A stretch of DNA of 59,335 bases from an uncultured Candidatus Saccharibacteria bacterium (GTDB lineage Bacteria > Patescibacteriota > Minisyncoccia > UBA6257 > Colwellbacteraceae), in the NCBI GenBank assembly GCA_964643135.1, contig CAZXPC010000005.1, positions 1-59,335 of the forward strand, written 5' to 3'. A model generated the notes under the pieces. That model was not told the DNA's origin. It did not search any database and was given only the letters and a program-made list of their open reading frames with translations. The position numbers were made by a program, and so were the translations under genes. Below, in pieces: positions 6,716 through 58,886 of this stretch; the first letter of the stretch is position 1, and the number at the start of each line of letters is the position of its first letter.

Positions 6716-6787
6716 ATGTTAAGGAATCTATCAAACCTCGTCGCGATTATTTGCCCAATTATTAAGGGCTATTCTTGTCGGGGTTAG
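6716..6787 (+). CDS. mini-ORF, 23 aa MLRNLSNLVAIICPIIKGYSCRG
   Basis: Paralogous cassette to 6289-6428: same ATGTTAAGGA start and the same CTCCCCGGCAAGGGGAG terminator. Confidence 0.4.
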   Translation: MLRNLSNLVAIICPIIKGYSCRG

Positions 6788-9179: not shown

Positions 9180-12100
9180 ATGCTCCCGAAAATATTTAAT
9201 AAGCTATATAGCGCCCTTAATATCGAGCAAAAAGAGGCGGTCGATGCGATCGACGGGCCGGTTATGGTGATTGCTGGGCCGGGCACCGGTAAAACGCAGA
9301 TTCTGACGCTACGCATTGCCAATATTTTGAGAGAGACCGATACCAACCCGGATAACATTTTGGCGCTCACTTTTACCGAGTCGGCGGCTTATTCGATGCG
9401 TAAGAGGCTGGTCGACATCATTGGCTCAGCGGCTTATCGCGTTAATATCAGCACCTTTCATGGCTTCTGCAACGAAATCATCAAACGTTTCCCGGAAGAT
9501 TTTCCGAGGATCATTGCGAGCACAAACATTACCGAAGTCGACCAGATCCGCATTGTCGAAGATATTATTGAGAACACGAAGTTGAAGGATTTGAAACCAT
9601 ATGGCGACAAATTTTACTATCTTTATCCCATCATCCGCTCGATCAGCGACCTTAAGCGCGAAAATATTGATACTAAAGAGTTTGAGAAGTTGTTAAGAAT
9701 ACAAGAGAGAAAACTTCACCCAGTTAAATCCGCCAGGGGATCAGCGGTCTTGGAGAAACTTTTCAGCAAAAATAAAGAGCTGGTTAAGGTCTATAAAGCT
9801 TACGAGAAAGAGTTGGCCAAGGCCAAGCTTTATGATTATGACGATATGATTATGGAAGTTTATCGGACATTATCCAAGAACCATGATCTTCTAGCGACGC
9901 TCCAGGAAGAATATCAATACATTTTGGTTGACGAACACCAAGACACCAACAACGCGCAGAACAAAGTGGTAGAGCTGCTGGCTAAATTTCATGATAATCC
10001 GAATATATTCGTGGTGGGGGACGAGAAGCAGGCAATTTTTAGGTTTCAAGGCGCCTCACTCGAAAATTTTCTCTATTTTAAAAAGTTATACAAGAAAGCC
10101 AAGATAATTACGCTCGAAAAGAATTATCGATCCAGCCAGAATATTTTGGACTCGGCTCATTCGCTGATCTCGAAGAGCGTCGATGGTTTTGAAGAGTTCC
10201 GCAAGAATCTGAGGGCTGCAGAAGATGAAGACAGCGATGAGGAGCAGAAAATCAGTGTTTATTCATTTTCTAAGGAGATGTCAGAATACGAATTTATCGC
10301 GCGCGATATCCGCACCAAGGTAAAGGCTGGGGTTCTGCCGGAGGAGATCGCCGTGCTCTATCGTGAGAACAATGATTCACAGGCCATCGCTAAAGTTTTA
10401 GATCGGCACGGAGTGGATTACATAATCGAATCTAACGAGGATATTTTATCTGACAACAATCTCAATAAACTGTTTTTAATTTTGAAGGCAGTTAACAACT
10501 TTGGCAGTAAGGCTGATTTTATCAATATGGCCCATGTTGATTTCTTAACCATCGATTCTCTGGACCTCTATCGCTTAATTAATTCAGATCAGAGAGATTT
10601 CTTTGGGTTGCTGAAGAATAAATTAGCGCTCAAGAGGCTTGGTGTTGAAACCCCGGAAGCTATTTCAAGGATTTATGAAAAATTAGCCGGCTGGTACAAG
10701 ACCGAAAAGAATAAGAACCTCCTGGAATTTTTTGAGATAATTGTTCGTGAATCAGGCTATTTGGATTATATTCTGTTGCTTAATTCTTCGGCCGAGGACT
10801 TGGAGAGGCTCAATAGTTTCTTTGATGAAATAAAGTCGCTTATCGAAGCGCATCGAGACGTCCGGTTAAAGGATCTGATCAAACACTTGGACTTGCTTAA
10901 AGATCATGGAGTATCGGTTAAGGCGGAAATTGGTCAAAGTAAGTCCGGAAAATCAGGCAAGGTCAGATTAATGACGGCGCACCGATCAAAAGGGTTGGAG
11001 TTTGATTACGTTTACATAATAAAAGCCTATGATGGCCACTGGGGGAATAAGCGGAAGCCGAATCCGCTCAAGCTCGCGCTGAATTTAGAGAGCTTAGCTA
11101 ACTCCGACACCTTGGCTGACGAGCGCCGGCTTTTTTACGTCGCTTTAACTCGTGCCAGGATTGGCGTCATGATAACTTACGCGACCGAGGGCAAAAATGG
11201 CATGCAGTTGCCTAGCCAATTTATTGAAGAAATTGATAAAGCTTTAGTTGATTTTAGAGATGGCGCGGCTTATGAAAAGGAATTTGCCGGTAGCCAGAGC
11301 CGACAGAATCATTTTAAAGAAGTTCAGAGCAAAGCAGCGCCGCTTAAAGACAAAGAATATCTGAACGGCTTATTTTTAGATCATGGCTTGTCGGTCACAG
11401 CGCTCAATAATTATCTAGAGTGTCCGTGGCGATATTTCTATAACAATTTGGTGCGGATACCGACGGCGATCGAAAATAGCCAGATGTATGGCATCGCACT
11501 TCACGAGACTTTGAAATATTTTTTTGATAAATATAAAACGAGCGGCGAAGGAAGTAAAAAACTTCTGCTCGAACTCTTAGATAAGAATTTCAAGAAACAG
11601 CCGTTTAGCAAAAAAGATTTTGATGTGTTTTATGAACGCGCTAAGAGGTCCATCTCAGGCTATTATGATGAATATTCAAGGTTCTGGTCTAGGAATATTT
11701 TGAACGAATTTAATATCAAGGGGGTTTTGCTGGAGGATAAGATTCACCCGGTTAAATCCGCCAAGGGCGGTGCGGAGCAATTTAACCGGGTAAAAATCAA
11801 CGGCAAAATCGACAAGATTGAGATTTTGGATTCGAAAAGCGATGCTAATGAAGTAATTGTTTATGACTATAAGACTGCGAAACCAAAGAGCCGCAACGCA
11901 ATTGAGGGCAAAACGAGAAGTTCCAAAAATAACCAACAGGGAAATTACAAGCGCCAGTTGGTTTTCTATAAACTATTACTCAACTTATACGACAACAATA
12001 AATATAGGATGCAGAAAGGCGTGATTGATTTCTTGGAGCCGGACGAACGCGGCCGCTATAAACGTGAGGCTTTTGAAATAACCGATACGGAAGTCGCCGA

Positions 12101-12215
12101 ACTAACTGAGCTGATCAAAAAAGTTTCAGGAGAAATTCTAGATTTATCTTTCTGGAACGAGAAGTGCCACGACAAAAAGTGCGAGTACTGCAAGTTGAGG
12201 GGAATGATGAAGTAA
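9180..12215 (+). CDS. UvrD/PcrA-type helicase fused to a PD-(D/E)xK (RecB/Cas4-like) nuclease with a 4-Cys cluster
   Basis: 1011 aa; GPGTGKT, DEHQDTN, VALTRAR helicase motifs; C-terminal YLECPWRYF .. DYKT .. CHDKKCEYC. Confidence 0.9.
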   Translation: MLPKIFNKLYSALNIEQKEAVDAIDGPVMVIAGPGTGKTQILTLRIANILRETDTNPDNILALTFTESAAYSMRKRLVDIIGSAAYRVNISTFHGFCNEIIKRFPEDFPRIIASTNITEVDQIRIVEDIIENTKLKDLKPYGDKFYYLYPIIRSISDLKRENIDTKEFEKLLRIQERKLHPVKSARGSAVLEKLFSKNKELVKVYKAYEKELAKAKLYDYDDMIMEVYRTLSKNHDLLATLQEEYQYILVDEHQDTNNAQNKVVELLAKFHDNPNIFVVGDEKQAIFRFQGASLENFLYFKKLYKKAKIITLEKNYRSSQNILDSAHSLISKSVDGFEEFRKNLRAAEDEDSDEEQKISVYSFSKEMSEYEFIARDIRTKVKAGVLPEEIAVLYRENNDSQAIAKVLDRHGVDYIIESNEDILSDNNLNKLFLILKAVNNFGSKADFINMAHVDFLTIDSLDLYRLINSDQRDFFGLLKNKLALKRLGVETPEAISRIYEKLAGWYKTEKNKNLLEFFEIIVRESGYLDYILLLNSSAEDLERLNSFFDEIKSLIEAHRDVRLKDLIKHLDLLKDHGVSVKAEIGQSKSGKSGKVRLMTAHRSKGLEFDYVYIIKAYDGHWGNKRKPNPLKLALNLESLANSDTLADERRLFYVALTRARIGVMITYATEGKNGMQLPSQFIEEIDKALVDFRDGAAYEKEFAGSQSRQNHFKEVQSKAAPLKDKEYLNGLFLDHGLSVTALNNYLECPWRYFYNNLVRIPTAIENSQMYGIALHETLKYFFDKYKTSGEGSKKLLLELLDKNFKKQPFSKKDFDVFYERAKRSISGYYDEYSRFWSRNILNEFNIKGVLLEDKIHPVKSAKGGAEQFNRVKINGKIDKIEILDSKSDANEVIVYDYKTAKPKSRNAIEGKTRSSKNNQQGNYKRQLVFYKLLLNLYDNNKYRMQKGVIDFLEPDERGRYKREAFEITDTEVAELTELIKKVSGEILDLSFWNEKCHDKKCEYCKLRGMMK
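9715..9745 (+). repeat. 5' half copy of the in-frame palindromic element
   Basis: TTCACCCAGTTAAATCCGCCAGGGG, same reading frame (LHPVKSARG) as the full copies. Confidence 0.6.
11743..11798 (+). repeat. 56-nt nested-palindromic element inserted in frame (copy in the helicase-nuclease)
   Basis: 54/56 identical to 15296-15351; outer stem ACCCGGTTAAAT/ATTTAACCGGGT, inner CCGCC-AAG-GGCGG. Confidence 0.9.
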
Positions 12216-13574: not shown

Positions 13575-15257
13575 ATGCTTAGAGATGATTTGAAAAGGAT
13601 TGTGAAGGGCGATATTGAGGATGATGCGCCCATTTTGACGCGTTTTAGTCGCGATGCCAGCCTTTTTGAGGTGCGGCCGCAGGTGGTAGTTTCGCCTAAG
13701 TCAGTCGATGACATAAAAAACGTTGTTAAGTTTGTTAGCGAGAATAGGTCCAAGGGGAATCAGGACAAAACTCTATCGATAACGGCACGGTCGGCGGGCA
13801 CTGATATGTCCGGTGGTCCGCTCAATAACTCGATTATTTTGTCGATGACAAAATACTTTAATCACATTAAAGAGGTTAAAGAAACGGGCCAAGATAGTAA
13901 TGCCGGCTACGCCGTGACAGAACCGGGAGTCTACTATCGCGATTTTGAAGCCGAGACGCTAAAGAAAGACTTGCTGATGCCGTCATATCCGGCCTCGCGT
14001 GAAATTTGTACCGTGGGCGGTATGGTCGCGAACAATTCCGGCGGCGAGAAAACTCTGGCCTACGGCAAAACCGAAGATTTCGTTTTGGAGCTGAAAGTTG
14101 TGTTGGCTGACGGCAATGAATACACCATTAAGCCCCTCACTAAAACTGAACTGGTTGAGAAACTGAAGCTTAATAACTTCGAAGGCAAAATTTATAGCGA
14201 GATTTTCCACATGGTTGAGGACAACTATGAGAAGCTGAAAGCGGCCAAGCCAAACGTCACTAAAAATTCGGCTGGTTATTATTTATGGAATGTTTGGGAC
14301 AAAGAAAAATTTGATTTAACACATCTTATCGTCGGTTCGCAGGGGACGCTGGGCCTTGTAACCGAGATCAAGTTCAGGCTGGTTAAGGTAAAGAAACACG
14401 ATCGGTTAGCGGTTATTTTTATGAAGAAGCTGGATGCTTTGCCCGAATTGATCAATGCGGTTCTGAAATACAAGCCGGAGAATTTTGAAAGCTACGACGA
14501 CCAGACTTTGAAGCTGGGGATAAAATATTTCCCCGACATCATTAAGATTTTGAAGCCGAAGCATATGGTTAGCCTTGCGATGGAATTTATACCGGAATTT
14601 TTCGCCGGTTTGTGGGGCGGATTGCCGAAACTTATCTTGCTCGTTGAATTTACGGGCGACGACGAAGGAGAGATCGAGAAGAGATTAAACGATCTGGATG
14701 AGGACTTAGAAAAGTTTCCAGTTAAAGTACGTATTACTAAAAACGACGAAGAGGAAAAGAAATATTGGACTTTCCGCCGCGAGAGCTTCAACCTGCTCCG
14801 CCACCATTTGAACGGCAAGCGGACGGCGCCATTTATAGATGACATTGTGGTGCGGCCCGAATTTTTGCCCGAATTTTTGCCAAAGTTGAATGCGATTTTA
14901 AAGCAATATCCGATCTTCTACACTGTGGCTGGCCACATGGGCGATGGCAATTTCCACATTATTCCCCTGATGGACATGGCTGATCAGCGTTCCAAGACTA
15001 TCATTATCGAACTCTCCGAAAAAGTTTATGACTTAGTTATTCAATATAAGGGTTCGATCACGGGCGAGCACAATGACGGCATTATCCGCACGCCGTTTTT
15101 GGAAAAAATGTATGGACCGGAAATTTGCGACATGTTTAAAAAAGTGAAAAATATTTTCGACCCGCAAGGTATTTTTAACCCCGGCAAAAAGGTGCCGGAC
15201 GGGACGGGCGGCGGCACGATGCAATTTTTGAAAGACCATATTATTAACGTTAATTAG
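13575..15257 (+). CDS. FAD-binding (PCMH-type) oxidoreductase, GlcD/D-lactate dehydrogenase-like
   Basis: 560 aa; ARSAGTDMSGG, VGGMVANNSGG, C-terminal GSITGEHNDG. Confidence 0.85.
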   Translation: MLRDDLKRIVKGDIEDDAPILTRFSRDASLFEVRPQVVVSPKSVDDIKNVVKFVSENRSKGNQDKTLSITARSAGTDMSGGPLNNSIILSMTKYFNHIKEVKETGQDSNAGYAVTEPGVYYRDFEAETLKKDLLMPSYPASREICTVGGMVANNSGGEKTLAYGKTEDFVLELKVVLADGNEYTIKPLTKTELVEKLKLNNFEGKIYSEIFHMVEDNYEKLKAAKPNVTKNSAGYYLWNVWDKEKFDLTHLIVGSQGTLGLVTEIKFRLVKVKKHDRLAVIFMKKLDALPELINAVLKYKPENFESYDDQTLKLGIKYFPDIIKILKPKHMVSLAMEFIPEFFAGLWGGLPKLILLVEFTGDDEGEIEKRLNDLDEDLEKFPVKVRITKNDEEEKKYWTFRRESFNLLRHHLNGKRTAPFIDDIVVRPEFLPEFLPKLNAILKQYPIFYTVAGHMGDGNFHIIPLMDMADQRSKTIIIELSEKVYDLVIQYKGSITGEHNDGIIRTPFLEKMYGPEICDMFKKVKNIFDPQGIFNPGKKVPDGTGGGTMQFLKDHIINVN

Positions 15258-15258
15258 C

Positions 15259-16077
15259 ATGAACACCAAATCGCCAACACTTTTTGAGGCGAAAGTTCAC
15301 CCGGTTAAATCCGCCAAAGGCGGTGCGAAGCAATTTAACCGGGTAAAAATCGCTTTTTTCGACATCGATGGCACGATTTTCCGCTCGAGCCTTTTAATCG
15401 AACTTATTAACGGCCTGGTTGAAAGCGGAATTTTCCCCAAGAAGGCGGCTCATGAAATTATCGGCAAGAAGATAGCCTGGCTCGACCGCACCGGCCGGTA
15501 TGACGAATATCTATATCAAGTTGTGCTGGTTCACCTCAAATATATCAAGGGTTGCCGCTGGGAAGATGTGAAGCGAGTGGTTGAGATCGTGATCAAAGAA
15601 GAAGGCGACATGGTTTATCGCTACACTCGCGATTTGATTAAGAAACTTAAGAGCGAGGGTTATTACATGGTCACGATTTCGGGTTCGCCGATTTATATGG
15701 TGCAGGAATTTGCCAAACACATGGGTTTCAACAGCGCTTTTGGCCAGATTTTGGGGATAGAGAATGGAATTTTTACAGGTGAGATTGTTAACAAGAATTT
15801 TCGGGATAAAGAAAGCATCATCAAAGAATTCCTGGCGACCTCCGGCATTGATGCAGACATGGAAAATTCGATTGCTGTCGGCGACACTGACAATGATATC
15901 CCGATGCTTAAGATGGTCGGTCGCCCGATCGCGTTTAACCCCAACCGCGAACTGGCTCTTTATGCCAGAAAAGAAAATTGGGAGATTGTGGTTGAGAGGA
16001 AAGATTCGATCTACCAAGTTAAAGATTTTGAGTTGCTGGATTATGAGGGAGTGGACGAAAAGAAGCGCGAGTTCTAA
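15259..16077 (+). CDS. HAD-IB family hydrolase (SerB-like) with a repeat-derived N-terminal extension
   Basis: FFDIDGTIF motif I follows the repeat copy directly; GDTDNDIPM motif IV. Confidence 0.85.
   Translation: MNTKSPTLFEAKVHPVKSAKGGAKQFNRVKIAFFDIDGTIFRSSLLIELINGLVESGIFPKKAAHEIIGKKIAWLDRTGRYDEYLYQVVLVHLKYIKGCRWEDVKRVVEIVIKEEGDMVYRYTRDLIKKLKSEGYYMVTISGSPIYMVQEFAKHMGFNSAFGQILGIENGIFTGEIVNKNFRDKESIIKEFLATSGIDADMENSIAVGDTDNDIPMLKMVGRPIAFNPNRELALYARKENWEIVVERKDSIYQVKDFELLDYEGVDEKKREF
15296..15351 (+). repeat. 56-nt nested-palindromic element inserted in frame (copy in the HAD hydrolase)
   Basis: 54/56 identical to 11743-11798; same frame (VHPVKSAKGGAKQFNRVKI). Confidence 0.9.
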
Positions 16078-34077: not shown

Positions 34078-34509
34078 ATGTTTATCGGCGAATTTCAACA
34101 TAATCTGGATACTAAAGGCCGCATTGCGCTCCCGGCCAAATTCCGCTCAAAGATCACGGGCGGGGCGATTATTACTCGCGGCATTGATAAGTGTCTATTC
34201 GTTTTTACCGGCAAAGAATGGGAAACATTGGCGGCTAAATTAATGGCATTGCCTTTGTCGCAATCGAACTCGCGAGCGTTTGTTCGCTTGATGCTTTCCG
34301 GCGCGGCCGATGTTGAACTCGATTCGCAAGGCCGAATTTTGATTCCTGACTATTTACGCAAATATGCTGGACTAACCAAGGAAGCCAAGGTTACGGGTGT
34401 GTATAACCGAATGGAAATCTGGGACACCGCGACCTGGGACGAATATAAATCGAAGACGGAAGGACAATCGGAAGAAATTGCTGAAAAGCTGGGTGAGCTG
34501 GGAATCTAA
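34078..34509 (+). CDS. mraZ: transcriptional regulator MraZ
   Basis: canonical N-terminus MFIGEFQHNLDTKGRIALP at the internal ATG; the track GTG start at 34051 lies inside a DnaA box. Confidence 0.92.
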   Translation: MFIGEFQHNLDTKGRIALPAKFRSKITGGAIITRGIDKCLFVFTGKEWETLAAKLMALPLSQSNSRAFVRLMLSGAADVELDSQGRILIPDYLRKYAGLTKEAKVTGVYNRMEIWDTATWDEYKSKTEGQSEEIAEKLGELGI

Positions 34510-34617
34510 CAAATAACAAATAACAAATAACTTATAACTTATAACTAATGACTAATAACAAAATCAGGAATTCAGGATTCAGTTATGGGTTATCAGTTAT
34601 CCGTTATTAGTTATGAG
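34507..34617. repeat. AT-rich palindromic element, copy 1 (mraZ-rsmH spacer)
   Basis: left arm ..ATAACAAATAAC..ACTAATGACTAATAAC, right arm GTTATCCGTTATTAGTTATGAG; ACTAATAAC (34551-34559) pairs with GTTATTAGT (34603-34611), which sits 1 nt upstream of the rsmH ATG. Confidence 0.75.
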
Positions 34618-35521
34618 CCATATTCCAGTTCTTTTAAATGAAACGTTAGAGAGTCTCGATCCCAAGCCTGGCGAGTTGATTATAGACGGTACAACGAACG
34701 GCGGCGGGCATCTCGAAGCGATAATAGAGCGAATGAAGGAAGGCACGGTAATGGCAGTTGAGTGGGATGCGGACATTATTAGAAAGACACAGGAAAGAAT
34801 TGATGCTGAGCTAAAAGCTAAAAGCTCCAAGCTAAAAGCTATCTGGATAAATGACAACTACGCGAACATTCCGGAAATCTTGGTCCGAGAGAAATTAGGG
34901 AAAGCTGACGGATTGCTCTTGGACCTGGGTTTCTCGACTGAACAGCTCGAGAGTCAGAGAGGATTTAGCTTCGCCGAAAAGGATATTGATGAACCGCTGG
35001 ATATGAGATACGACCGCACTGGCAGTGAGCCCACCGCCGCAGAAGTTTTGAACAGCTTACGCGAGGAAGATCTGGCCGCAATCATTTACCGATATGGCGA
35101 AGAGAGATTCTCAAGATTTATTGCGAAGGGGATAGTCGAAGCGAGGAAGAAGGAGCGAATTATCACGGTTAAGCAGCTGGTGGAGGTGGTCAAGAAATCA
35201 GTGCCGAAGTTCTTCAAAAAAGGAGAGATGGATGTAGTAGCGCGGACATTCCAAGCCATACGCATTTACGTCAATCACGAGTTTGAGAATATCGAAAGCA
35301 TTTTGAAAAGTTTACCGAGCATTATGAACAAAGGCGGCCGGGTCGCGATCATCTCTTTTCACTCGCTGGAAGACCGGATGGTCAAGAATCACTTCAACGA
35401 GATGGTGAAGGAGGGGAAGGCGGAACTGATTACCAAAAAACCGATTGCGCCAACCGAAACAGAAATAAAAAATAACCCAAAAAGTCGATCAGCCAAGCTA
35501 AGAGCCATCATTATCAACTAA
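34613..35521 (+). CDS. rsmH: 16S rRNA (cytosine1402-N4)-methyltransferase
   Basis: 302 aa; HIPVLLNE, DGTTNGGGH, ISFHSLEDR. Confidence 0.95.
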   Translation: MSHIPVLLNETLESLDPKPGELIIDGTTNGGGHLEAIIERMKEGTVMAVEWDADIIRKTQERIDAELKAKSSKLKAIWINDNYANIPEILVREKLGKADGLLLDLGFSTEQLESQRGFSFAEKDIDEPLDMRYDRTGSEPTAAEVLNSLREEDLAAIIYRYGEERFSRFIAKGIVEARKKERIITVKQLVEVVKKSVPKFFKKGEMDVVARTFQAIRIYVNHEFENIESILKSLPSIMNKGGRVAIISFHSLEDRMVKNHFNEMVKEGKAELITKKPIAPTETEIKNNPKSRSAKLRAIIIN

Positions 35522-35614
35522 TAACAAATAACTAATGACTAATAACACAAAAACAAAATCAGAAAACAGATTCTATGTCGAGTTATCTGTTATAAGTAAT
35601 CAGTTATAAGTTAA
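35519..35614. repeat. AT-rich palindromic element, copy 2 (rsmH-ftsL spacer)
   Basis: TAATAACAAATAACTAATGACTAATAACA.. / ..GAGTTATCTGTTATAAGTAATCAGTTATAAG. Confidence 0.75.
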
Positions 35615-37545: not shown

Positions 37546-37617
37546 GGTCCCATCGTCTAGCGGCTAGGACATTGCCTTCTCAAGGCAGTAACCGGGGTTC
37601 GATTCCCCGTGGGACTA
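37546..37617 (+). tRNA. tRNA-Glu (anticodon CUC)
   Basis: hand-folded cloverleaf: acceptor GGTCCCA/TGGGACT, anticodon loop TTCTCAA, T-arm CGGGG-TTCGATT-CCCCG, discriminator A, no encoded CCA. Confidence 0.9.
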
Positions 37618-37629
37618 CTAACAAAAAAT

Positions 37630-37653
37630 CGGCACCTTGCGTGCCGGTTTTGT
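37630..37653 (+). terminator. intrinsic terminator after tRNA-Glu
   Basis: CGGCAC-CTTGC-GTGCCG followed by GTTTTGT. Confidence 0.7.
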
Positions 37654-37660
37654 GTTAGCT

Positions 37661-37775
37661 CTCACGGCGGGAATCGAACGGGAAAGGGGTCGGGAAACCG
37701 CGATCGGTTTCCCGTGAAGGAGAGGTGTAGAGAACCGTGGGTTCTCTAGGCGCAGGCTGAAAGCCGAGCAGTGAG
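37661..37775 (+). ncRNA. candidate structured RNA / tRNA-derived remnant
   Basis: perfect hairpins GGGAAACCG-CGAT-CGGTTTCCC (37692-37713) and TAGAGAAC-CGTGG-GTTCTCTA (37728-37748), bracketed by TCTCAC/GTGAGA; GGGAATCGAAC (37669-37679) is a reverse-complement T-loop-like motif. Confidence 0.35.
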
Positions 37776-57728: not shown

Positions 57729-58221
57729 GTCGGGGCAGGTGATGGTTGAAGCGGTGGTGGCCTTGACCGTGTTGGCTTTCGGCATTTCCGGAATTTTTGT
57801 GCTTTTTTCCAACTCGCTCGGCCTGAACCGCCTTTCGACCGACGAATATATCGCTTCGGGCCTGGCTTCCGAAGGCATCGAAGTCGTCAAGAATATTTTA
57901 GATTCTAACTATATGCTCAATAAAAGTGGAACCGCCACAGCTTGGAATAACGGACTCGCCAACTGCACTCTCGGCTGTAGCGTCCAATATGACAGCACGG
58001 CGGTCGGGTCGCTGGAAGCCACGCCGTTAAGCTTCCACAGCAGTACCGGAACATATGATTATGGTGCCTCCGGCACTTCAACTAAATTTACCCGCACGAT
58101 CACGATTAGCGGCGTTGTGAATAATGAAATCACTATTATTTCGCGCATCGATTGGACTGGTTTGAAGGGGCTCTCTTACAATTTAGTTTTAGAGGATCAC
58201 GTATTTAATTGGAGACCCTAG
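57706..58221 (+). CDS. pilin-like protein with atypical N-terminus
   Basis: ..RSGQVMVEAVVALTVLAFGISGIF hydrophobic N-terminal helix. Confidence 0.6.
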   Translation: MEKFLLNRSGQVMVEAVVALTVLAFGISGIFVLFSNSLGLNRLSTDEYIASGLASEGIEVVKNILDSNYMLNKSGTATAWNNGLANCTLGCSVQYDSTAVGSLEATPLSFHSSTGTYDYGASGTSTKFTRTITISGVVNNEITIISRIDWTGLKGLSYNLVLEDHVFNWRP

Positions 58222-58225
58222 CTAA

Positions 58226-58312
58226 ACTGATAACAAATAACTAATGACTCATAACAAATACAAAAAATTAAACTCTCTTGCGTGTTATCGGTTATTAGTT
58301 ATGAGTTATAAG
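58226..58312. repeat. AT-rich palindromic element, copy 3
   Basis: ATGACTCATAAC (58244-58255) pairs with GTTATGAGTTAT (58298-58309): 11 Watson-Crick pairs plus 1 G-U. Both arms contain an ATG. Confidence 0.8.
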
Positions 58313-58837
58313 TCGCGTGAAGCATTCACGCTGATGGAACTTTTGGTTGCTACATCGCTTTTTATTATCATCGCTACCATTACGACCGGCGCCTTTGTGC
58401 AATCTTTGAGGACCGAGAGGACCATTGTGGTTTTTACCACAGCTCTTAACAACGTAACTCAGTCGATCGAACAGATGTCCCGAGAAATCCGCACCGGCAG
58501 CGATTTTAGCAATTCCGATGCGGATAACCTTAACTTCATAAATTATAAAGGCCACCCCGTGAGCTACCGCCTTTTGTCAGCCGCTAAAGTTATCGGCCGG
58601 TGCGAAGGGTCTCTTTGTATCAACGCCCTGGACAGCCAATACCAGCCCATCACTTCGGACAAGATTAAGATCGATACTATGAAGTTCTATTATCTGGGGA
58701 CGGGCGAAACGGGGAGTATCACTAACCCAGCCGATAACTTGCCGCCGCGGATCACTATCACAATCGCTGTCGAAGGCATTCAGGGAGCGGTCATCAATTT
58801 GCAAACATCGGTTAGTCCATATGCCATCGGAAGCTAG
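58301..58837 (+). CDS. pilin-like protein
   Basis: MSYKSREA/FTLMELLVATSLFII; the alternative upstream ATG at 58244 lies in the left repeat arm. Confidence 0.75.
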   Translation: MSYKSREAFTLMELLVATSLFIIIATITTGAFVQSLRTERTIVVFTTALNNVTQSIEQMSREIRTGSDFSNSDADNLNFINYKGHPVSYRLLSAAKVIGRCEGSLCINALDSQYQPITSDKIKIDTMKFYYLGTGETGSITNPADNLPPRITITIAVEGIQGAVINLQTSVSPYAIGS

Positions 58838-58841
58838 GGGA

Positions 58842-58886
58842 ACTAATAACAAATAACTAATGACTCATAACAAATACAAAAAATTT
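58842..58886. repeat. AT-rich palindromic element, left-arm-only copy 4
   Basis: AACTAATAACAAATAACTAATGACTCATAACAAATACAAAAAATT, near-identical to 58229-58269. Confidence 0.75.

Follow-up and report, generated by a model that had tools for sequence, protein, structure and literature searches.

A family of three-way-junction repeats, found in frame in two genes of a Patescibacteria contig, has the same ends as a GIY-YIG nuclease cassette

A small palindromic repeat occurs twice in full, and once as a fragment, within protein-coding genes of contig CAZXPC010000005.1 (positions 1 to 59,335 of the forward strand, 59,335 nt, here called the window), which belongs to assembly GCA_964643135.1 of an uncultured Candidatus Saccharibacteria bacterium in the Patescibacteria, or candidate phyla radiation (CPR). 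Patescibacteria have tiny genomes and are thought to hold few mobile elements. A preliminary description had likened the repeat to the Rickettsia palindromic elements (RPEs), which insert in frame into open reading frames (ORFs). Our analyses indicate that it is an insertion at the DNA level, that it is almost certainly one member of a widespread family whose single strand folds into a three-way junction, and that it very probably shares its ends by descent with a cassette encoding a small GIY-YIG nuclease.

The first full copy (copy A) occupies 11743-11798 (+) in the gene for a fused helicase and nuclease, and the same 56-mer recurs with two mismatches (54/56) as copy B at 15296-15351 (+) in the gene for a phosphatase of the HAD family. 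Both positions are exactly those given in the preliminary description, and none of 100 dinucleotide shuffles produced a match to the 56-mer. The two copies are alike over 66 nt (91%; 11733-11798 against 15286-15351). A half copy in the helicase had been placed at 9715-9745; the fragment is real and covers 25 nt, 9715-9739 (+), of which 23 and 22 are identical to the respective full copies. All three copies are read in one frame, as had been described, within the ORFs 9180-12215 and 15259-16077. The features are as follows.

9180..12215, + strand: host gene 1, a 1011-aa fusion of a UvrD-type helicase and a PD-(D/E)XK nuclease (Pfam PF00580, PF13361, PF12705; homologs).
9715..9739, + strand: truncated 5' copy, consisting of the left arm and the 5' half of hairpin 1, with no fold.
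11745..11792, + strand: copy A, a 48-nt, 16-codon insertion HPVKSAKGGAEQFNRV in the helicase-nuclease gene, its ends uncertain by about 2 nt.
11746..11757, + strand: left arm of the outer stem of copy A, or terminal inverted repeat (TIR), ACCCGGTTAAAT; the family consensus extends to TTYA-CCCGGTTAAAT.
11758..11770, + strand: inner hairpin 1 of copy A, CCGCC-AAG-GGCGG, seen in folds; the equivalent hairpin co-varies in the family.
11771..11779, + strand: inner hairpin 2 of copy A, TGC-GGA-GCA, of only 3 bp, seen in folds and in the covariance model alignment.
11780..11791, + strand: right arm of the outer stem of copy A, ATTTAACCGGGT; the same sequence codes for Y-L-T-G-stop in nuclease cassettes.
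15259..16077, + strand: host gene 2, a 272-aa HAD-family phosphatase (Pfam; DxDxT motif).
15298..15345, + strand: copy B, HPVKSAKGGAKQFNRV, in the N-terminal linker of the HAD hydrolase (covariance model R1, 58 bits, E 4e-13).
15299..15310 and 15333..15344, + strand: arms of copy B.
15311..15323, + strand: hairpin 1 of copy B.
15324..15332, + strand: hairpin 2 of copy B.

The repeat had been described as a nested palindrome. Its 12-bp outer stem and the inner hairpin CCGCC-AAR-GGCGG are both real, whereas the single nested hairpin is not: the stem encloses two hairpins, which makes the element a three-way junction. As RNA the 56-nt element folds at -25.7 kcal/mol (z -3.3), and as DNA the full copies fold at -18.5 kcal/mol on either strand (z -6 to -7.8); the truncated copy has no stable fold (DNA fold z +0.4). 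In both window copies the second hairpin is shortened to TGC-GRA-GCA, a form also present at one related locus (L021), while in relatives it has 6-9 bp, for example TGTTTCGCC-AGA-GGCGAAACA in L084; the covariance model (CM) of the family aligns hairpin 2 of copy A as a 12-nt deletion. Within the window this model detects copies A and B (E ~1e-12; for copy A, 55.3 bits and E 2e-12 with CM R1) and nothing else convincing. A diverged extra copy at 13823-13894 was considered and rejected, being merely a weak AT-rich hairpin (E 0.17). The left arm of copy A recurs in at least 133 related loci.

The host sequences beside the window copies are also alike, on the left at 11733-11745 and 15286-15298 (GAGGNNAANNTTC) and on the right in a shared AAAAATC (11792-11798 and 15345-15351). 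Genic copies elsewhere often have ...AAR-RTT 5' of the element and AAA-R 3' of it. This likeness could mean either a target preference or flanks that were transferred together with the element.

Comparison of orthologs points to DNA insertion as the origin of the repeats in these two unrelated genes, and to that extent the RPE-like character proposed for them is borne out. The syntenic relative L137 (GCA_040384205.1, about 70% amino acid identity) carries an empty site, ...GAGTTC|AAAATAAACGGC, and reads ...LLDNEF-KINGKIDK where the window reads ...LLEDKI-[HPVKSAKGGAEQFNRV]-KINGKIDK, a clean difference of 48 nt. The insert is likewise absent from the nearest helicase homologs, P0242 and P0243 (71% and 68% identity), and from about 57 others among the 60 homologs compared. 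In L137 the helicase is called as two genes through a run of N at 6770-6786, which is a scaffold gap and not an insertion. Each copy had been thought to add 18 codons; relative to orthologs copy A adds 16 (48 nt), and copy B and the truncated copy bring no net gain. The site of copy A corresponds in helicase homologs to a loop of hypervariable length (0 to about 20 residues). AlphaFold2 modelling of the nuclease domain (mean pLDDT 91) renders the insert as a coil (pLDDT ~60) at the tip of a hairpin between strands 110-122 and 140-154, so that copy A is predicted to sit in a hypervariable beta-hairpin loop of the PD-(D/E)XK domain, in keeping with the surface-loop placement that had been envisaged.

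Copy B is absent from HAD orthologs. The linker that holds it is found only in the closest HAD relatives, where its sequence is unrelated and its length similar, and no alternative start codon lies between copy B and the DxDxT motif. A decayed copy in the HAD linker of the relative L134 was entertained and dropped, since 90 of 1000 shuffles reach its alignment score, which is not significant. The truncated copy stands in place of a segment, DLYHEKGxxKGKMKGKY, that is conserved in most helicase orthologs, and would fit a deletion that took part of the element and host sequence together. A CM scan of 50 kb from the relatives L134, L135 and L137 found no copy. We reject an ancestral peptide motif as the source of these repeats, given that orthologs lack the insert and that the nucleotides are near-identical between unrelated genes.

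The family is not confined to the three sites in the window. A scan of GTDB species genomes, for which the query was the outer stem alone with a gap of 10-40 nt, returned 13 loci labelled Paceibacterota, Nealsonbacteria, Staskawiczbacteria and a few others. A slightly looser scan of metagenomes returned at least 120 loci, mostly Patescibacteria-like, and the CPR setting suggested for the repeat is thereby upheld. In these loci the outer stem, TTYACCCGGTTAAAT / ATTTAACCGGGTRAA, encloses two abutting hairpins, and the single strand is again a three-way junction. Among the matches listed, about 70 non-redundant elements have two abutting perfect inner hairpins of differing sequence, although the stem-only search left the inner stems unconstrained; most have 3-nt hairpin loops and zero unpaired bases at the junction. 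The layout seen most frequently has a 5-bp hairpin first and then one of 9 bp, AATTTCGCC-NNN-GGCGAAATT, with an interior of 34 nt, and other interiors measure 28, 22 or 40 nt. The stem reaches 15 bp (TTYA...TRAA), its outermost-but-one position usually being C.A on one strand and U.G on the other.

The hairpins are maintained by selection on their pairing. Covariation was assessed in 16 elements that fit the layout, from 20 with a 34-nt interior: both sides of the pair have changed in 4/5 pairs of hairpin 1 and 9/9 pairs of hairpin 2 (13/14 in all), the proportion of paired cells is 94% against at most 48% when partners are slid, and none of 500 shuffles reaches the observed values. Two insertions in TruB (L030 and L055) are orthologous and about 85% identical in DNA, and the sole difference in their stems is a compensatory change of T:A to C:G. 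A CM built from the same 16 elements found further diverged copies in other Patescibacteria loci, 2-3 per 8-13 kb and up to three per 13 kb. The elements had no match in Rfam 15, either at gathering thresholds or at E up to 1, and no viral contig matched the element pattern. Carriage by phages, also considered, was discarded on the latter result. We are nearly certain that the window repeats belong to a widespread three-way-junction family, whose hosts are Patescibacteria and some other bacteria.

On several GC-richer contigs (L024, L026, L032, L040, L069, L083, L108, L109 and L130) a junction element lies within a conserved non-coding stretch of ~250 nt that contains CGCAGAG-type direct repeats and a terminator-like hairpin (e.g. 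L026 3380-3620, downstream of a chemotaxis receptor gene). This stretch could be a non-coding RNA locus.

Elements are found in either orientation, within and between genes. Open frames of at least 120 codons contain 29 of the ~70 junction-type elements listed (~40% genic), and the other 41 lie outside such frames. Given the high coding density of these genomes, the elements are depleted in genes, which would follow from the loss of most genic insertions. Examples elsewhere include the N-terminus of RNase J (L025), TruB (L030, L055) and three long ORFs of one Nealsonbacteria metagenome-assembled genome. The window element has one stop-free frame out of three on each strand; the copies in the window share a frame because stop codons close the others, and the shared frame is thus a survival filter and no clue to mechanism. 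All genic copies of the Patescibacteria type have an interior length of 1 mod 3 (checked by hand), since this joins the open entry frame, HPVK, to the sole open exit frame, FNRV, and the peptide between the two varies freely. In a minority of copies, from other bacteria, entry is through another frame, TRLN, and the interior is 2 mod 3. When the element is reversed, the common hairpin 2 introduces a TAA (AAAT|AATTT), and genic copies consequently face one way. Splicing or translational bypass was considered and is unnecessary, since every CPR-type genic copy keeps its frame open.

The repeat had been regarded as a selfish or domesticated element; it is no orphan, in so far as a protein-coding relative exists. 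In 11 loci (L087, L068, L075, L118, L015, L046, L060, L140, L148, L152 and L163) the same TIRs bracket a GIY-YIG ORF. The two 15-bp repeats of this cassette stand ~290 nt apart and enclose a small gene, in the order TIR-L, a leader of 22-30 nt, an 85-aa ORF and TIR-R; the cassette form therefore consists of two half-sites and not of two complete hairpins. TIR-R supplies the Y-L-T-G and stop of the ORF (L087, L068, L140, L148, L152, L163). The left and right repeats co-vary, CCCTG occurring with CAGGG, and CAGGG is a synonymous change of a Thr codon. A second stem is formed where the 5' leader pairs with the (N/D)LKL codons ~90 nt downstream, leaving the start codon in the enclosed loop (L087 1219-1330; L140; L148; L152; L068; L075). 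It reads AATTTTAAATTTTT/AAAAATTTAAAATT in AT-rich and AGCTTGAGGT/ACCTCAAGCT in GC-richer versions, with compensatory differences. We considered whether hairpin 2 of the ORF-less miniature elements derives from this leader stem and dropped the idea, the orientation of the miniature element in L163 being unsupportive.

The 85-aa protein matches a single Pfam family, PF01541 (GIY-YIG), beside a weak T5orf172 hit. Its metagenomic homologs number in the thousands; the best 120 are at least 75% identical and nearly all 85 aa long, and one of them is labelled Patescibacteria. Some cassette proteins have 97-98 aa, in L087 and L163 because the ORF reads through a miniature element adjoining TIR-R, and miniature elements directly adjoin TIR-R in three lineages (L087, L118, L163). 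Within several species one copy of the cassette occupies a syntenically fixed position in many samples, and between lineages its locus differs (between two pilin genes; between the gene for an HhH protein and def; elsewhere). The gyrA gene upstream of one fixed cassette (L139, L140, L142, L145) contains an intein (Intein_splicing Pfam). That the window element shares its ends with the GIY-YIG cassette by descent is, in our judgement, very probable. A study of subsurface Patescibacteria listed a GIY-YIG protein among the genes apparently donated to other bacteria (PMC12455944).

Elements and cassettes also interrupt one another. A gene for a 334-aa IS200-type Y1 transposase (PF01797) is present in 13 of 120 metagenome loci with the stem pattern among the matches listed, on GC-richer contigs outside the Patescibacteria. 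A whole cassette together with a miniature element lies just before the HUH motif of this gene in L075, L118, L015 and L046, and the copy in L043 (865-1869) is uninterrupted at the cassette site, a polymorphism for presence and absence. Miniature elements lie in frame at further positions of the same gene family (L043, L075, L118, L015, L020, L092). The GIY-YIG ORF is itself broken by a miniature element after the catalytic-Arg motif DLKLR (L075 313-375, L118, L015, L046, L060), and cassettes occupy different loci although the protein is at least 75% identical in the best 120 homologs. Nested insertions of this kind are the behaviour of mobile DNA, and the Y1 gene is a target of the elements and not their partner. 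One in-frame copy in the Y1 gene, ...AVDAG[PVKCREAALPEAGFNRAG]KG..., persists in orthologs with flanks diverged to ~75%. The interruptions at DLKLR fall at the same point with different hairpins in two diverged lineages, and could reflect a hot spot or an old insertion.

Among known systems the nearest is the Ssn family of single-domain, 94-aa GIY-YIG enzymes, which cut single-stranded DNA (ssDNA) only, beside a cognate hairpin, NTS/SRM, found on the flanks of the enzyme's own gene and scattered in hundreds of copies (Chenal et al., Nat Commun 2025, PMC11893778). For Rickettsia the same paper reports over 300 copies of the SRM. Its authors note an architecture like that of insertion sequences and leave mobility as a hypothesis, and the SsnA/NTS pair modulates natural transformation in Neisseria (PMC11893778). 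A 94-aa GIY-YIG ORF amid NTS arrays at a gonococcal locus (L162) was taken, from its length and context, as a homolog of SsnA; the 85-aa cassette protein is 29-37% identical to it, with comparable similarity to the UPF0213 protein 1zg2. The likeness extends to a single GIY-YIG domain of ~85-94 aa with no extra DNA-binding domain (as read, for the cassette, from related loci), to a nuclease gene that has its own hairpin-forming repeat on both sides, with further copies of that repeat scattered through the genome, and to hairpins with stems of 8-9 bp and 3-nt loops. There are also differences. The Ssn repeat is unrelated in sequence to the Patescibacteria elements; here one long inverted repeat is split by the gene into two halves, of which the right is coding; dispersed copies here are three-way junctions and not single tagged hairpins; ~40% of elements here lie in open frames, compared with 2% for NTS; and the hosts are Patescibacteria, which go unmentioned in the main text of that paper (PMC11893778). 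Judged by its sequence, the cassette appears to have an architecture the same in kind as that of Ssn/NTS, and it may act through a putative cleavage of ssDNA.

For the in-frame behaviour the best analogy may be found in the RPEs. RPEs are 100-150 bp long and restricted to Rickettsia. Like them, the elements described here are small palindromic repeats lying in frame in unrelated ORFs and absent from orthologs, at a surface loop (copy A, in the AlphaFold2 model) or a variable terminal linker (copy B); they differ in size (48-70 bp), in forming a three-way junction and in sharing a 15-bp terminal repeat with a nuclease gene. Repetitive extragenic palindromes (REPs) and REPINs, with their REP-associated tyrosine transposases (RAYTs), offer short palindromes kept by compensatory change, a single-copy enzyme gene and ssDNA folding as the supposed substrate. 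In contrast, the gene associated here encodes a GIY-YIG hydrolase and not an HUH/Y1 enzyme, REPs are extragenic by definition, and the Y1 genes seen here are interrupted and not flanked. No GTAG/CGTC tag is visible in the elements listed, and no search was aimed at such tags. MITEs (miniature transposable elements with inverted repeats) such as Correia/NEMIS have in common with the present family the TIRs, small size, lack of coding sequence, the existence of a larger relative that shares their ends, and the nesting of insertions. Here, however, the interior consists of two structured hairpins and not of transposase-gene remnants, the larger relative encodes a GIY-YIG nuclease and not a known transposase, the size is at or below the range usual for MITEs, and the two comparisons of filled with empty sites, which resolve the ends to ~2 nt, show no target-site duplication of at least 3 nt. 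Free-standing GIY-YIG homing endonucleases are small selfish genes that occur at different loci in related genomes, as the cassette does, but they possess a DNA-binding domain and invade only homologous alleles that are empty, whereas the cassette encodes a single domain, ends in inverted repeats and is represented in unrelated genes by ORF-less derivatives.

Two other identities were discarded. One was an integron attC site: the GTTAAAT/ATTTAAC boxes of the element resemble R'/R'' by eye but stand in the wrong order in the stem, a judgement made by inspection only, no attC search having been run. A self-cleaving ribozyme or other Rfam family has no matches, and the junction and loops hold no conserved unpaired nucleotides. 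Full-text literature searches found no paper on the element sequence or on palindromic elements in CPR/Patescibacteria, in line with the preliminary description, whose author knew of no characterisation of the class in that group.

We consider it moderately probable that the window repeats are RPE-like miniature elements and the non-autonomous partners of an Ssn-like nuclease cassette. The miniature elements would then serve as non-autonomous partners or recognition sites of the GIY-YIG cassette, and would spread through ssDNA arising in replication, repair or natural transformation. The nuclease may cut the folded junction, after which host repair or recombination would copy the element to new A/T-rich sites, new copies arising without a recognisable target duplication. 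Genic copies would survive only in the stop-free frame and orientation and where the protein tolerates them, for instance in a surface loop or terminal linker, and would give rise to the HPVK...FNRV peptide.

A number of observations tell against this account. To our knowledge GIY-YIG enzymes hydrolyse DNA and do not join it, and they offer no complete transposition chemistry. Comparisons of insertion sites (window with L137; L118 and L075 with L043) gave no duplication of at least 3 nt, the divergence of the empty sites leaving the ends defined to no better than ~2 nt. The full copies in the window are few (n=2), and the elements used for covariation were picked partly for structural fit. The SRM pattern HGTCWYN(0-2)YYVSBRHN(0-5)WNVSBRGN(0-2)RNCYNB matched 0 of 56 elements and nothing in the window, against 8 matches in the gonococcal ssnA control, and the best PDB match of the 85-aa protein is UPF0213 protein BH0048 (1zg2). 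Fixed cassettes have decayed repeats and no miniature elements nearby. Finally, the 59-kb contig holds no GIY-YIG gene besides UvrC; with no cassette in the contig, the link to the nuclease rests on shared ends, not on co-occurrence in this genome.

A bolder version would make the 85-aa GIY-YIG protein, which lacks any domain for binding or joining DNA, and its inverted-repeat ends a new class of ssDNA-based transposable or self-copying element with a hydrolase as its only enzyme, and this we hold to be possible yet rather doubtful. Under it the nuclease would recognise the three-way junction, and ORF-less derivatives would have colonised Patescibacteria, in genes as well as in spacers, and passed into other phyla. 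If true, it would explain how Ssn-associated repeats multiply.

An alternative source of mobility is the Y1 transposase itself, the repeats being REP/REPIN-like elements moved by an IS200-type Y1 (HUH) enzyme, with the GIY-YIG cassette a mere carrier or target. Folded hairpins are what Y1 transposases recognise, and compensatory change preserves the palindromes of REPs (discussed in PMC11893778); the Y1 protein recurs in the 13 metagenome loci noted above, and in the CPR-like locus L025 a 239-aa Y1_Tnp gene lies 1.7 kb from the element inside RNase J. The arrangement nevertheless differs from that expected of a partner: the Y1 gene is interrupted by elements and cassettes or carries in-frame copies, and is not flanked by them as a RAYT is by REPs, the CM finds no second copy around the Y1 gene of L025, and the tags mentioned above were not seen in the elements listed. 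Moreover, it is the GIY-YIG gene that the exact repeat pair encloses, with an overlap at the stop codon, and the window contains no Y1 gene. We consider this explanation unlikely. No likelier is a domesticated recognition site, by which the host uses the pair of nuclease and site to control recombination or the uptake of transforming ssDNA, a role suggested for NTS/SsnA in Neisseria, genic copies being incidental. Patescibacteria are generally held to depend on DNA uptake. Several species have the single-copy, syntenically fixed cassette, the old orthologous insertion in TruB retains its hairpin pairing, and SsnA/NTS is a precedent in natural transformation (PMC11893778). Against these stand the nested insertions, which destroy nuclease and transposase ORFs and look parasitic, the decay of repeats around fixed cassettes, and the fact that nothing in the window ties the two copies to a regulated function. 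Such a role would in any case be compatible with the partnership of miniature elements and nuclease cassette that we favour.

Less probable than either, and very unlikely, is a function in RNA (cis-regulatory or small RNA) or as a conserved peptide module. The strong fold and significant covariation would suit a structured RNA, and the stem between the cassette leader and the (N/D)LKL codons could act in mRNA. Yet the elements match nothing in Rfam at gathering or permissive thresholds, either strand folds equally well, copies stand in both orientations in genes and between them, and the loops and inner stems lack conserved sequence. A peptide module is contradicted by the free variation of the stretch from HPVK to FNRV and by orthologs without the insert.

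The preferred relationship between miniature elements and nuclease cassette has consequences beyond this contig. It concerns an abundant repeat family of Patescibacteria that is written into proteins as varied as a helicase-nuclease, a HAD phosphatase, RNase J and TruB. The Ssn study left open both the mobility of the unit and the multiplication of its repeats (PMC11893778); the present family, in which sites occur empty as well as filled, insertions are nested and cassettes differ in locus, offers concrete substrates and predictions for a test of mobility. The junction and the 85-aa protein form a compact candidate pair for structure-specific cutting of ssDNA. In annotation, the HPVK...FNRV peptide and the YLTG-stop end can serve as flags in metagenomic proteins.

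The window holds other repeats besides these. A second family lies in spacers, at 34501-34622, 35509-35613, 58218-58310 and 58834-58885, where arrays of a ~7-nt unit (TAACAAA/TAACTTA/TGACTAA) face their complement (GTTATCN) and form long imperfect palindromes; two of these arrays flank rsmH in the mraZ-rsmH-ftsL-PBP cluster. The tRNA at 37546-37617 contains, in its 3' end, the start of a 39-nt inverted repeat (37597-37679, 77% complementary), the second arm of which resembles a tRNA fragment's T-arm on the opposite strand.

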